Shown here: positions 33,376 to 39,674 of the stretch, piece by piece
How positions within the stretch are numbered: the first letter of the stretch is position 1
Layout: each line of letters opens with the position of its first letter
Source: a bacterium
GTDB taxonomy: Bacteria; Bdellovibrionota_C; UBA2361; CALJRW01
Assembly (NCBI GenBank): GCA_031385045.1
Contig: JANNBC010000009.1
Coordinates: 38,427-102,426, forward strand
Direction of reading: 5' to 3'
DNA: 64,000 nt
Made by a program: the position numbers and the translations under genes
Notes under the pieces: generated by a model
What the model saw: only the letters and a program-made list of their open reading frames with translations
What the model was told of the DNA's origin: nothing
Database searches by the model: none

Positions 33376-35079
33376 TTACTTAGAACAAACACTCTGCACA
33401 ACTGGAACTTGGTTAGTAAACTCCACGTTCAGGGCATGTTGAGCATTATTAGCTCTCTCCATCCGACCTAAAAGGTTCGCTGAAGCTCCAGCTTTCTTAA
33501 CTTTGCGAATTACTTTTTGACCTAATTTGCGAAGCTCTTCTGAACCAGCTTGGTAGATACCAATCCTGTCCTGATTACTTGTTGCAATACAAAACTTAGT
33601 ATTTCCACAAGTCGTTACATTAACAGGAAGACTCCAAGTAATTCCCCAGTTAGCAGCCTGTAACTCAGAAGCCAAGGCATTTGTTCGTTTAATAAAACGC
33701 AGTGCTCGAGGACTTGAATCAAGCTTCTTCAAGTTACGATTAAACTTATTGATTAATCTTTCTTGAGCAAGAGAACCACCATCAATGCTATTTAGCAATG
33801 CTGACTGATCAAACGTGTCACAATTTAGACAAGACTGACCATCACCATTACAAATACCACAACGATCTTTCTTAGCAGTACCATTTAAGATTCCTTTACA
33901 ATCCGTACAAGAAGAGTTGTCACCACCACATACTCCACAGTTATCAAATTCTAATCCACTGTTAGGAATACCGTCACAACCTTTGTCCTCTTCGCACTGA
34001 TCCGATAAATCCTTTAAAGCGTCAGCATCATCACACTTAACACCTAAGTGATCCTCAGAACAAATAATTGTACCATGGAACTCACAAAGCCCTTCTCCGA
34101 TACCACAAGTAGTATCTAAGCTTGGGAATGATTCGTCGATATCACCATCACAGTTATTATCTAATCCATCACAAAGCTCTGTGGTAGGCTCTTCATTACG
34201 CTCACAAGAACAGGAATTAGTAAAAGTTCCTCCATTACAAACTCCTTGTTCGCCATTGTCGCATAAAGTCCCTGGAAGAGATGTGCCATTTGGAACACCT
34301 AAACAGTCAGCACAAGCTGAGTTATCTCCATTACAGACTCCGCACTCATCAACTACTTTATTATTTGCATTGGGAACATACGGACAAGAGTCTGTTCCGA
34401 TTTTTTCAATCGCTAAATCGACATCTCGATTTAATCCCCAAATTTTCATTTGAATCGCACCTATTGATTTGAAATCAACAGGAAAAGCTTTCCCCGCTGC
34501 TTTTACAAAGCTACTGTAAGGAATACTTTTTTTAGTAGCACTTGGAATCGCAACATTTAAGATGATCGAAGCCGATGATGCATGACCTTCATCTGAGTAC
34601 ATAATAATTTCAATCTCAGTTGGTTGCTGATTTGCATAATCAAAACTGATAATATCGAGATCTATTGAAGTTGAACCATCTTGAGTAAAGTCGACTCCAC
34701 CTAATCCCTGATAATTAACAATTGAGCCTCCAGTTTGATCACCATCCCAAGTAACTGTAGCTACGCCACTAGCGCCTTGGTCTTGAGAGAATGTTAAATA
34801 TCCAATTTCACTGACCATTCGATTTGGACGATTAACTGTTCCAGCGAATGCGAAGACATTAAATTCACGATTACTGCCAATCACTGAACTACGGCCAGTG
34901 CCATCTGCAGGAATATTGATTTGGCCAAAGGAAGCAGAACTATCGGGAGTACCATCATTGACAACGAGTGCATCGCCATCAAATTCATCAATTGTTATGG
35001 CCTGCGCAGAAGAAACAGCTAGCAAGCAGATGAATATAGAAATTAAGAACCCTGTTAAAGGAGTTACTGAGAATCTCAT
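33376..35079 (-). CDS. Secreted modular Cys-rich protein
   Basis: Signal peptide ending AQA; beta-rich N-domain; three DxCGxCxGDxxxC units, one ELCDGLDNNCDGDIDE unit; basic helical C-domain. Confidence 0.85.
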   Translation of the reverse strand: MRFSVTPLTGFLISIFICLLAVSSAQAITIDEFDGDALVVNDGTPDSSASFGQINIPADGTGRSSVIGSNREFNVFAFAGTVNRPNRMVSEIGYLTFSQDQGASGVATVTWDGDQTGGSIVNYQGLGGVDFTQDGSTSIDLDIISFDYANQQPTEIEIIMYSDEGHASSASIILNVAIPSATKKSIPYSSFVKAAGKAFPVDFKSIGAIQMKIWGLNRDVDLAIEKIGTDSCPYVPNANNKVVDECGVCNGDNSACADCLGVPNGTSLPGTLCDNGEQGVCNGGTFTNSCSCERNEEPTTELCDGLDNNCDGDIDESFPSLDTTCGIGEGLCEFHGTIICSEDHLGVKCDDADALKDLSDQCEEDKGCDGIPNSGLEFDNCGVCGGDNSSCTDCKGILNGTAKKDRCGICNGDGQSCLNCDTFDQSALLNSIDGGSLAQERLINKFNRNLKKLDSSPRALRFIKRTNALASELQAANWGITWSLPVNVTTCGNTKFCIATSNQDRIGIYQAGSEELRKLGQKVIRKVKKAGASANLLGRMERANNAQHALNVEFTNQVPVVQSVCSK

Positions 35080-35530: not shown

Positions 35531-36334
35531 CTATCTTTGCTGACCACACTTAACAGGATCAAAAGATGGTAAGGTGATTTGCAATTTATTGTTATGAATA
35601 TCAAGCGGCATAGAACGAACCTTAGCAACTCCAACCAAGGCATTCCCTAAACCTGATGCCCCTGCAACATTTTTCTCAGTAAAGTATGATGAAATGGCCG
35701 CAGTATTAGCATCACTAACTGAATCGGATAAAATAGTGATATTCTCCCCATCAATACTTACTAACTGCACATAGTAGACACGATCTTCTGGTTTAAATGA
35801 ACGACCAGGATTTTTATACTGCTCAACAACTTCGACAACAGTAACATAAGGCTTATCTTTACAGCTATTCTTACCACTAGAATCCTTGCAGACTTTCAGT
35901 AAATACAACTCCGCAGATTCGGGCGACTTATAATCTAAAGTTAAATCTTCGCCAAAATTACTAAGAACCTTGAAATATTTATCAAAGTCAGTCATCACAT
36001 CACCGAGGCGATCCTCTTTTTTTATCGTTACCGGCTTGGATAATTTTCCCAGAACTTCTGTTACGGCCTCCTCGCCTGTCGCTATTGATTCTAAGGAAAC
36101 TAATAATTTTTTATTCTCTGAGTAAAGCATATCCTGTTTGATGGCATCAAAGTCACCAAACATACAATTATTAGTAACCTTTAAGTTCATTGGAAACTTA
36201 CCTTTAAGGTACTGATCTTTTAATCCACTTTTAGCAATCGTAATCGACTTCACCGGCAAGTCGGCGAATACCGTAACCAAAGGAAGTATCGTAACAAAAA
36301 AAACTGCTAGCGTATTTTTAAATAGGTTTTTCAT
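35531..36334 (-). CDS. Secreted hypothetical protein (about 267 aa, 4 Cys)
   Basis: Likely start MKNLFKNT at 36334 gives a signal peptide ending VFA. Confidence 0.75.
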   Translation of the reverse strand: MKNLFKNTLAVFFVTILPLVTVFADLPVKSITIAKSGLKDQYLKGKFPMNLKVTNNCMFGDFDAIKQDMLYSENKKLLVSLESIATGEEAVTEVLGKLSKPVTIKKEDRLGDVMTDFDKYFKVLSNFGEDLTLDYKSPESAELYLLKVCKDSSGKNSCKDKPYVTVVEVVEQYKNPGRSFKPEDRVYYVQLVSIDGENITILSDSVSDANTAAISSYFTEKNVAGASGLGNALVGVAKVRSMPLDIHNNKLQITLPSFDPVKCGQQR

Positions 36335-36429
36335 ATTTGAATTAAGAAAAGAAAAAGAATGCGTAGTAAAACTTAGCCCTTGATTTTTACAAGGATAAGA
36401 CATGATTGTTTGCAGGGCAAGACAATAAC

Positions 36430-36472
36430 AAAAAGGGGCACAGATTAGACTAGCTAATCCTGTACCCCTTTT
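36430..36472 (-). terminator. Intrinsic terminator after the Hint-domain gene
   Basis: AAAAAGGGGCACAGATTAG...CTAATCCTGTACCCCTTTT. Confidence 0.75.
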
Positions 36473-36509
36473 CGATTCTTTAAGAACATTGTCTCAAAGT
36501 TGCCCCAGA

Positions 36510-39500
36510 TTATTTTTTATTAATAATCTCTTGGGCTGTTAGGTCACCAGTTACAATTCCATCAGAAAGTACCAAGTGGTTTTCTAATTCATTCTCAGCA
36601 TCTAAACGAATATTAATTACTCGTTGGTCAGCCTTAATTGGTAATGCTACTGCTGAAATTACAGCAACTTCACTACCGCTTAATGTTACAACATCACCAG
36701 CGACTACTTCTCTAGCTGTAATGATACCTCTCTTAGTATACACTGGGTGTTTCTGAGTAACCTTAACAACTTTACTGCCGGCAGTAATTGCAATGATTGG
36801 CTCTTCCTCATTTGATTCCAAGACACTCTTCACTTTCACTGCTTTACCAGTTACAGGGTTACGCACCTCTTCGCCAGCGCTAATACTTTCGATTGTTTTC
36901 TCTGTCCCATTAGCCATTAGAATTTTTGTTTCAGGAACGAAACAACCTTCTAAGCGTAATGAAGAACAAGTCCAACAAGCTTTACTGAAGTCAGCTGGAT
37001 TAGTAATCGGTGTGTTTTTATCACCGTAGTACTTAAAGGCTGTATCAAACTGACCGAATGTATCAGACTTATTAATAAAACCATTTTCAGCATGTCCAGA
37101 GAATCCGAAATAATATTCGAAACCTGTTTTGTTAATTGGTTTATTAACAAAGCTATTCTCCATCTGTTGAGTCCAGCCTGCAGGACGTAATCTGCTAACT
37201 GTAGTTCCATTAGGACCTGCAATTTGAACTTGACTCCAACCCCAAGCAGAATCAACTGTCATGGTTTGGCCATCTTTATTAACATCAATTCCGCGAATTG
37301 CTTCAAGGATTTTAATCCCTTCATTCAATAGCGCTTGAGTTACGTTCTGGCCTTGAGCATTTACAGCACTAGTAAAGAAGCTTGTAAAACCCTGTCCAGC
37401 AACATCCTGTTTCTTCTGGAAGCCCATCATACAAACTCTCATTTGATAGATGTCGTAGCCATCATCTTGACCAGCATAAGTAGTCTTACCATGCTGACTT
37501 TCAGGATAGCCTAAGCCTACGCAACAGTTCGGTACTCCCCAGTTTGGATCATTAACCGTACGGTCACAATCATCAGGTCCAAGTTCACACTGAGCGTTAC
37601 AAACTGCTCCTGGAAACTTATCCTTATAGATCTGACGGATATTAGTTCCATCACACATCTCTGTTGGGCTATTGATAATACCATCGCCACAAACCGGAGT
37701 TTTACACAGATTAGAACAAGCATCATTGTTGACAGTATTGCCATCATCACACTGTTCTGGGTTCTGCTTAATACCATCGCCGCAAACGGCAGTGATACAT
37801 TGGTTACTACAGTTATCATTGTTAACTGTATTACCATCATCACACTGCTCACCTGCTTGTTTGATACCATCACCGCAAACCGGAACTGTACAAGTATTTG
37901 TACAAGCATCATTGTTTACAGTATTGCCATCATCACAAAGCTCTGGAGTTTGCTTAATACCATCGCCACAACGTGGAGGCTGACAAGTATTAGAACAAGC
38001 ATCATCATTTACAGTGTTACCATCATCGCAAAGCTCTGGAGACTGAACGCATCCATCACCGCAACGAGGAGTAGTACATTCGTTAGTACAAGCATCATTG
38101 TTAATCTTGTTACCATCGTCACACTGCTCTGGACTCTGCTTAATACCATCACCACAAGCTGGAACTGTACAAGTATTTGTACAAGCATCTGTGTTGTTAG
38201 TATTACCATCGTCACACTGCTCGCCTGTTTGTTTAATACCATCGCCACAACGTGGAGGCTGACAAGTATTAGAACAAGCATCATCATTTACAGTGTTACC
38301 ATCATCGCAAAGCTCTGGAGACTGAACGCATCCATCACCGCAACGAGGGGCAGTACAAGTGTTTGTACAAGCATCATTATTAATCTTGTTACCATCGTCA
38401 CACTGCTCACCTGTTTGCTTAATACCATCACCGCAAACCGGAACTGTACAAGTATTTGTACAAGCATCATTGTTTACAGTATTGCCATCATCACATAACT
38501 CGGGAGACTGAACTAAGCCATCACCGCAACGAGCATTTTGACAAGTATTAGAACAAGCATCATTGTTTACAGTATTACCATCATCGCACTGCTCGCCTGT
38601 TTGTTTAATACCATCTCCGCAGATTGCAATTACGCATAAGTTGCTACAGCTATCATTGTTAACAGTATTGCCATCATCGCACTGCTCGCCTGTTTGTTTA
38701 ATACCATCGCCACAACGTGGAGCTGTACAAGTATTTGTACAAGCATCATTGTTATTTGTATTACCATCGTCACACTGCTCACCTGTTTGCTTAATACCAT
38801 CGCCACAACGTGGAGGCTGACAAGTATTAGAACAAGCATCATCGTTTACAGTGTTACCATCATCGCAAAGCTCTGGAGACTGAACGCATCCATCACCGCA
38901 ACGAGGAGTAGTACAAGTATTAGTACAAGAATCATTATTTACAGTATTACCATCATCGCACTGCTCATTTGATTGTTTGATTCCATCTCCGCAAACTGGA
39001 ACTGTACAAACATTTGTACAAGCATCAGTGTTTACATTGTTACCATCATCGCACTGCTCATTTGATTGTTTGATTCCATCTCCGCAAACTGGAACTTTAC
39101 ATGTATTAGAACAAGCATCTGTGTTTACAGTATTACCATCGTCACACTGCTCAGTTAATTGTTTGATTCCATCTCCGCACTTAGGATTATGGCAAGTATT
39201 CGTACAATCATCATTATTAACAGTGTTACCATCATCACACTGTTCGCTAGAATCATTTACAACGCCATCACCACACTTAGTACAACTTAAACGACAACCA
39301 GTATCATTTGGGTTAGCGTAATCACAAGTTGTTCCTGGGAAAATTTGAACATCATACTGATTATGAACAGCATCACCGCAATATGGTAAACGACATTCTG
39401 CACGACAACCGTCAGTAGTATTAGTGTTACCATCGTCGCACTCTTCATTCCCAAGGCGAATACCATCACCACAATATGTGCAGATAGTACATTCACAGTC

Positions 39501-39674
39501 CGAACATCCACAAAGAACTGGATCCGTAACTGTTACTAGCGTACTGCCCGGAGGACAAAAATTGTTAGTATTTCCTGCAAAATCTTGCGCGCTGACAGTA
39601 GAAAAAGCGAACAAAATTGATAAAAAAAGTATTGAAACAAAAGCCTTTACTGACTTTAAGTTTGTATTTTCCAT
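36510..39674 (-). CDS. Secreted protein with myxobacterial-type Cys-rich repeats (DUF4215-like) and a C-terminal Hint domain
   Basis: Signal peptide; 18 full CGDG..ExCDDGN..C...C units plus 2 degenerate; G|CF at C911, TQKH block B, C-terminal DGIVTGD. Confidence 0.92.
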   Translation of the reverse strand: MENTNLKSVKAFVSILFLSILFAFSTVSAQDFAGNTNNFCPPGSTLVTVTDPVLCGCSDCECTICTYCGDGIRLGNEECDDGNTNTTDGCRAECRLPYCGDAVHNQYDVQIFPGTTCDYANPNDTGCRLSCTKCGDGVVNDSSEQCDDGNTVNNDDCTNTCHNPKCGDGIKQLTEQCDDGNTVNTDACSNTCKVPVCGDGIKQSNEQCDDGNNVNTDACTNVCTVPVCGDGIKQSNEQCDDGNTVNNDSCTNTCTTPRCGDGCVQSPELCDDGNTVNDDACSNTCQPPRCGDGIKQTGEQCDDGNTNNNDACTNTCTAPRCGDGIKQTGEQCDDGNTVNNDSCSNLCVIAICGDGIKQTGEQCDDGNTVNNDACSNTCQNARCGDGLVQSPELCDDGNTVNNDACTNTCTVPVCGDGIKQTGEQCDDGNKINNDACTNTCTAPRCGDGCVQSPELCDDGNTVNDDACSNTCQPPRCGDGIKQTGEQCDDGNTNNTDACTNTCTVPACGDGIKQSPEQCDDGNKINNDACTNECTTPRCGDGCVQSPELCDDGNTVNDDACSNTCQPPRCGDGIKQTPELCDDGNTVNNDACTNTCTVPVCGDGIKQAGEQCDDGNTVNNDNCSNQCITAVCGDGIKQNPEQCDDGNTVNNDACSNLCKTPVCGDGIINSPTEMCDGTNIRQIYKDKFPGAVCNAQCELGPDDCDRTVNDPNWGVPNCCVGLGYPESQHGKTTYAGQDDGYDIYQMRVCMMGFQKKQDVAGQGFTSFFTSAVNAQGQNVTQALLNEGIKILEAIRGIDVNKDGQTMTVDSAWGWSQVQIAGPNGTTVSRLRPAGWTQQMENSFVNKPINKTGFEYYFGFSGHAENGFINKSDTFGQFDTAFKYYGDKNTPITNPADFSKACWTCSSLRLEGCFVPETKILMANGTEKTIESISAGEEVRNPVTGKAVKVKSVLESNEEEPIIAITAGSKVVKVTQKHPVYTKRGIITAREVVAGDVVTLSGSEVAVISAVALPIKADQRVINIRLDAENELENHLVLSDGIVTGDLTAQEIINKK
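37680..39473 (-). repeat. Coding tandem repeat, 93-nt (31-aa) unit with 279-nt higher-order spacing
   Basis: Near-identical blocks start at 38011, 38290 and 38848. Confidence 0.95.

Follow-up and report, generated by a model that had tools for sequence, protein, structure and literature searches.

What becomes of the thioester in bacterial Hint domains that do not splice has been a long-standing question since these domains were described. It arises again in the 64,000-nucleotide stretch of DNA analyzed here (the window), where a 1054-residue protein encoded at 36510..39674 on the minus strand ends in a Hint domain. In the available text of two papers, Hint domains undergo an N-to-S shift to a thioester and class 1 splicing needs an Asn and a +1 nucleophile (PMC5874633, PMC4031507); B-type BILs are described there as cleaving without splicing (PMC4031507). 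The protein begins with a likely Sec signal peptide, recognized by inspection (approximately residues 1–29; 39588..39674, minus strand, as are all segments of this gene), and continues with a stalk of 19 Cys-rich acidic repeats of the myxo_disulf_rpt/DUF4215 type (residues 68–698; 37581..39473), a disulfide-rich pre-Hint domain of 212 residues (699–910; 36945..37580), the Hint domain itself (C911–D1044; 36543..36944) and a ten-residue helical tail with a conserved Q1048 (L1045–K1054; 36513..36542).

The Hint fold is predicted with high confidence, with its junction at G910|C911, and the domain contains E956, T973xxH976, N1021 and the closing pair G1043-D1044, a Gly-Asp found at the position of the intein His-Asn, with Leu next. 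Profile matches, the predicted fold, C911 and T973xxH976 establish that the terminal Hint domain with intact N-terminal catalytic residues recognized in an earlier note on this DNA is real. Two further statements of that note also stand: the residues for class 1 splicing are absent, here and in the family, and no toxin follows, the protein stopping 10 residues past D1044. Given intact Cys1 and TxxH and the missing splicing residues, cleavage at the N-terminal junction only, as the note proposed, would be a sound expectation.

The pre-Hint domain has six cysteines (703, 717, 718, 748, 900 and 903) and a variable core, and ends in C-x-x-C-x-x-x-R907-x-x-G910; in the structure prediction its pLDDT is 77–88 at the ends and 36–59 in the core. 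A proposal that the CxxC gates the reaction by redox is not supported, as the C900-W-T-C903 motif is found in only 50 of 138 complete family members and lies in a predicted beta strand. Within the subfamily bearing this pre-Hint domain, all 18 full rows keep C718, C748 and C903; 12 have C703 together with C717, 4 have neither and 2 have just one of the two. C900 is seen, untallied, in the displayed alignment rows. Because these cysteines are conserved and the CxxC is placed in a strand, structural disulfides look like the better reading, as judged from alignment and model. The stalk would likely be an adhesin-type arm displaying a disulfide-locked pre-Hint domain.

A profile of the GD-ending Hint subfamily, a check the earlier note had asked for, was built from 14 rows and retrieved 441 clusters at E ≤ 1e-30; it reveals a terminal cassette on unrelated exported cargos. 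Among the best 150 of the 441 clusters, 142 have one terminal Hint and 8 are multi-Hint HN-type proteins. In the 142, Cys1 is present in 137 of 138 complete members (the single exception is Ser, also a Hint nucleophile), Gly-1 in 125/138, [TS]xxH in 141/142, the terminal Asp in 137 of the 139 with a parsed end (3 were unparsed), Gln at +4 in 136/139 and Arg at −6 to −3 in 116/138, counts that run high since the rows were picked by likeness to the profile and include kin that are not independent. The +1 position is hydrophobic (Leu 78/139; Cys, Ser or Thr 0) and the median tail after the Hint is 13 residues in the same best-150 set. The regions upstream of the Hint, by contrast, fall into 82 unlinked groups among the 138; their N-termini are signal-peptide-like, lipoprotein-like or TadE/pilin-like, with a hydrophobic segment in 98/138. 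Retention of the catalytic residues across 82 unlinked cargo groups identifies the GD Hint as a portable terminal cassette on exported proteins, mostly following R-x-x-G, whose N-terminal cleavage residues are under strong selection.

The host genome (G000) carries four Hints of this short-tail GD type. In a genome of the same genus (G001), a Hint gene at C9:93134-93823 (L014/L049) has its cargo reduced to a leader and a short Ser/Gln/Gly linker, with a Ser|Cys junction that lacks the Arg, while the host-genome counterpart has a full 780-residue cargo. Ser1 variants are found in G042:C242 (L006) and G109:C238 (L032), each still adjoining a partner gene of the kind described below. A search of genome_contigs with a single Hint query gave no confirmed locus.

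The strongest feature of the locus, absent from the earlier note, is a conserved partner gene downstream of the cargo-Hint gene at 35531..36334 (minus strand), which encodes an unannotated exported protein of 267 residues from its likely start (the ORF caller begins it at 36403). The family conserves a C-x-x-G-D-x-D motif, a Glu, a Tyr, a Ser and two Cys pairs: D37 is present in 34 of 34 members and D39, E58, Y163 and S217 are near-invariant. The four conserved cysteines look paired, as one row lacks both C33 and C239; among the lysines none is invariant, K137 coming closest (27/34). A mixed beta/alpha structure is predicted confidently (pLDDT 89, pTM 0.88). We found no convincing match to Pfam with the 34 members (best E = 0.006, single members only), none to NCBIfam and none to PDB sequences (best E = 0.27); nothing scored above 0.81 in the Atlas, and Foldseek with the predicted model gave nothing at E ≤ 0.001, the best being an FnIII-type sandwich at 0.084. 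A metagenome scan with one partner returned a single, identical locus.

The partner tracks the Hint domain. Across 124 genomes of the phylum, an unbiased search with a single partner sequence returned 27 rows, and a hand count placed 24 of these no more than 6 kb from a GD Hint. In profile searches of these genomes, with a partner profile built from Hint neighbors and linked loci that include kin and are not independent, a partner lies at most 6 kb from 41 of 41 short-tail GD Hints, against 0 of 7 other Hints, and in 34 of the 41 cases it directly follows the Hint gene, downstream on its strand and within 1 kb; by genome, the partner is present in 23/23 with the Hint and in 4 of the remaining 101. 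The linkage gives a Fisher p of 3e-21, and Hint and partner identities correlate over 31 loci (r 0.75, Spearman 0.46), but neither value is counted as evidence of co-evolution because kin share both genes. A divergent partner subgroup without G-D-x-D has no Hint nearby (L082, L083, L085, L086). Two other accounts of the pair were rejected: that the partner is the upstream domain of the long-tail group split off as a gene of its own (profile comparison probability 0.4), and that the two genes are a toxin–immunity pair, which is at odds with a constant downstream gene beside changing cargos and with the lack of any toxin-family match in the cargos scanned.

The reading that we tentatively favor, while falling short of conviction, is that the partner gates an N-terminal self-cleavage in which the thioester is hydrolyzed and the cargo freed. 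Both proteins would be exported, judging from their N-terminal hydrophobic segments. The Hint domain, predicted to fold with high confidence, would be joined by the partner, which on the strength of the gene linkage may dock on the Hint or on the Arg-x-x-Gly junction; that its conserved acidic residues pair with Arg907 is no more than a guess. A model of the Hint–partner complex scored 0.46, against 0.02 for the best of three controls, a score in the range that the tool rates more often wrong than right unless the pairing is likely beforehand; the benchmark mark was reached by 116 of 157 solved complexes and 2 of 215 mismatches, with only 18 of the 157 and both mismatches at 0.60 or below, and these counts hold roughly here, where our own alignments were used. 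The runs agree in at least 50% of contacts with a partner pLDDT of at least 83, no interface being given, and the model lends weak support to predicted binding of the two proteins. By analogy with known Hints, Thr973 and His976 would assist an N-to-S acyl shift at Cys911 that gives the Gly910 thioester. Lacking His-Asn and a +1 nucleophile, the domain should neither splice nor cleave at its C-terminus, and the thioester would likely be hydrolyzed to leave a mature cargo with a C-terminal Gly. A C-type BIL is reported to cleave at its N-terminal junction. Hint and partner would together make up a portable two-gene processing cassette that serves many unrelated exported proteins. Plain hydrolysis leaves unexplained the near-invariant Asp1044, Glu956, Asn1021 and Gln1048, and the need for a second protein.

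A second possibility, which we consider doubtful but worth pursuing, is that the Gly910 thioester is passed to an acceptor instead of water. The partner would either be that acceptor or present it, whether an amine or lipid of the cell envelope, a subunit of a pilus or a prey surface; the arrangement is likened to a hedgehog Hint and its sterol-recognition region split over two genes, or to a sortase signal with a built-in catalyst. Substrate recognition is suggested by the dedicated partner at 41/41 loci and by an Arg-x-x-Gly found across 82 cargo groups; the partner residues D37, invariant, and D39, E58, Y163 and S217, near-invariant, are consistent with it; and by motif inspection the near-invariant Asp1044 occupies the position of hedgehog C143, a residue that forms a branched intermediate according to the available text of PMC12054796. 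Transfer would account for the presence of a partner as well as for the Arg on the cargo side and the invariant Asp. The same lineage also has a module resembling FrpC-type self-processing on similar cargos, with four adjoining partner genes. Against transfer, the evidence offers no candidate acceptor, the partner cysteines looking paired and no Lys being invariant; lipoprotein- and pilin-type cargos are anchored already; and the FrpC-like family, found in 51/124 genomes, lies mostly far from partners, with Asp-Pro kept in one of five inspected copies. In its full form this rather doubtful reading is a two-gene ligation system: a cargo that ends in R-x-x-G plus a GD Hint would activate itself as a thioester, which the invariant Asp might relay, and the partner might guide the cargo's covalent attachment to the envelope of the cell, to a Tad pilus or to a prey surface.

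It is unlikely that the Hint cleaves on its own as in ordinary BILs while its neighbor serves the cargo or a Tad pilus. The reverse linkage is the looser one and leaves some space for this account: 38 of 52 partner homologs are near a GD Hint, and 14 have none within 6 kb; contig ends interrupt 5 of these loci, 4 have the secreted FrpC-module-like family as a neighbor and 5 are solitary. Several loci border TadE/TadG clusters, and the long-tail sister clade does without the partner (0/6 loci with one nearby; L039, L043–L047). Moreover, a terminator-like hairpin lies between the cargo-Hint and partner genes at 36429..36474 on the minus strand (−26.8 kcal/mol, z −5.8); 0 of 200 shuffles were as good, and it is missing from the list of the terminator scan. 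A similar hairpin with compensatory changes occupies the same intergenic place in G001, and the hairpin makes tight coupling of the two genes at this locus less likely, although Hint and partner are less than 200 nt apart at most other loci. Yet the partner tracks the Hint and not the freely changing cargo, and 0 of 41 short-tail GD Hints are without it.

Still less probable is that the Hint acts as a binding module, an often membrane-tethered partner retaining or chaperoning the cargo with negligible cleavage. The tight Hint–partner linkage would suit such docking, as would the long hydrophobic segment and linker with which several partners begin on inspection. Block F of inteins usually has Asp at position 4, where this family has Asn (93/94), a change that may also favor docking. 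However, the near-invariance of Cys1, Gly-1 and [TS]xxH, with Ser as the lone exception, is hard to explain without catalysis. An Asp-ending intein has been reported, and Asp is near-invariant at the terminal-Asn position here. Atypical splicing or C-terminal cleavage through cyclization of this Asp, with the cargo joined to the short tail, is nonetheless highly improbable: A-type BILs can splice without a +1 nucleophile (PMC4031507, in the text available), but the penultimate His is absent, the +1 residue is hydrophobic and the product would gain only ~10 residues.

The host genome encodes an HMG-CoA reductase (G000:C7:48760-49773), and at 94.9% completeness gives no match to DXR; TadE has three matches. 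An HMG-CoA reductase without DXR is a pattern typical of predators, and by such criteria these features would fit a predatory host, which makes an adhesion role for the stalk plausible. TadE/TadG-like (VWA) pilin clusters are flanked by Hint and/or partner genes at L060, L065, L086, L088, L089 and L050, those at L060 and L065 confirmed with Pfam, and some cargos begin with TadE-like ends (P0155). The FrpC-like module ends secreted Cys-rich proteins at G000:C7:66749-73945 (L002), where the gene is directly upstream of a Hint gene and its partner, and at L080, L086, L088 and L089. The L088 protein matches PDB 6sjx at E = 6e-5 and the host-genome copy gives no match; of the five modules inspected one keeps Asp-Pro and four have Ser/Thr-Pro, and genomes of the phylum with the family hold up to 11 copies. 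An unannotated C-terminal domain of ~130 residues with a W-x-L/I-P...C motif, noticed by inspection, is shared by secreted Cys-rich repeat proteins encoded at 33376-35079 of the window (minus strand) and at G000 C53:29427-32783, C43:19920-22157 and C25:13637-15061, and is possibly another terminal sorting domain.

With a partner beside every detected copy, the fate of the thioester can be put to a direct test using two small, soluble proteins. Should the cargo be ligated, this would be a new route of covalent anchoring in an uncultured lineage that is probably predatory, and possibly a tool for protein ligation; it would also be a prokaryotic counterpart of hedgehog processing with the acceptor recognized in trans, and would give surface proteins a new sorting route. 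Should the cargo only be released, the partner would be the first trans-acting Hint regulator, as far as the searched literature shows. That search, largely of openly available papers and of parts of them (PMC9185962, PMC2797640, PMC3403396, PMC11271337, PMC5941755), came upon no report of a partner gene serving a terminal Hint.

How does this Hint relate to those already known? It shares with the hedgehog Hog domain (PF01079; PDB 1at0) a Gly-Cys junction on a secreted cargo; in contrast to Hog, it has a 10-residue tail in place of a sterol-recognition region, is below the Pfam cut-off and has a separate partner gene. The name hedgehog-like used in the earlier note therefore does not hold in its specific sense, there being no sterol-recognition region and an Asp, by motif inspection, in place of the second catalytic Cys, C143. 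A correspondence of E956 with hedgehog D46 was rejected: the equal number is likely coincidence, and the published alignment does not pair them. As a class 1 intein the domain fails, Gly-Asp then Leu standing in place of (His)-Asn and Cys/Ser/Thr, and it differs from A-type BILs, which end in His-Asn in the available text of PMC4031507. B-type BILs are defined by a conserved C-terminal Cys/Ser/Thr without His-Asn (PMC9185962, in part); here the +1 residue is hydrophobic and the Hint_2 profile scores 14.3 against a cut-off of 28.4 bits. The pretoxin Hint (PF07591; PDB 2lwy) precedes a toxin, unlike the present one, which also scores below that family's cut-off (23.7 versus 27.7 bits). The isolated domain just passes the Vint cut-off (PF14623; 28.8 versus 27); Vint is defined by upstream VWA and Vwaint domains in the accessible part of PMC2362128, and profile searches found no VWA match upstream of this Hint.

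The C-type BILs described in 2009 are reportedly secreted and C-terminal and cleave N-terminally in vitro, and we know of no partner gene from that work. The likeness to them (Dori-Bachash et al. 2009, PMID 19153786; Bdellovibrio Bd2400) is one of description; the portion of PMC9185962 that cites this work places a PPS-1 domain upstream of this third type of BIL, which comes from predatory bacteria. A published qPCR primer for Bd2400 had 0 matches in genome_contigs and in metagenome_contigs. Short-tail members may already appear in the supplements of the 2009 paper. For a tree, 57 Hints were kept out of 65 candidate rows, 4 being dropped for want of a parsed end motif and 4 by a score or start filter; the set had no hedgehog, Vint, B-type BIL or canonical intein rows. 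The tree separates short-tail GD (100/97), long-tail GD (98/86) and HN types (100/91), the long-tail GD group being sister to the window's short-tail clade against the HN-ending Hints (100/91). Pseudoalteromonas, Tistrella, Azospirillum and Embleya carry long-tail GD Hints on plasmids or chromids (L043–L047), and that of P. xiamenensis sits behind a PKD-domain gene.

The closest known group is that of Burglin 2008, whose Additional files 16-17 (PMC2362128, as available) include the secreted bacterial terminal-Hint proteins MXAN_6253, STIAU_1829, plu1731, MED297_11140 and others. The GD end is thus not new, as had been supposed, since the same GD..Q end appears in Additional file 16 (PMC2362128). 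Like the window's family, the group consists of secreted proteins whose terminal Hint has Cys1, TxxHP, G-x-E and a G-x-x-V-G-D-x-x-x-Q end, and relatives assigned to it by motif match our family's profile at 99.9% (E = 9e-33, 151 columns). The GD-ending Hints match this group, and the C-type BIL is probably the formal name for part of it. Its members mostly have a longer tail (L-P-x-x-W-x-x-D) and one shared upstream domain; that domain's motif (two Cys, I-C-L-x-R...D-C-D-Y) and the long tail are, judged by inspection alone, absent here. In the window's clade the tail is short, the cargos are unrelated to one another, the junction mostly carries Arg-x-x-Gly and a partner gene is adjacent. GD-ending terminal Hints on secreted proteins are already known, and what appears to be new is the short-tail GD clade's dedicated partner.
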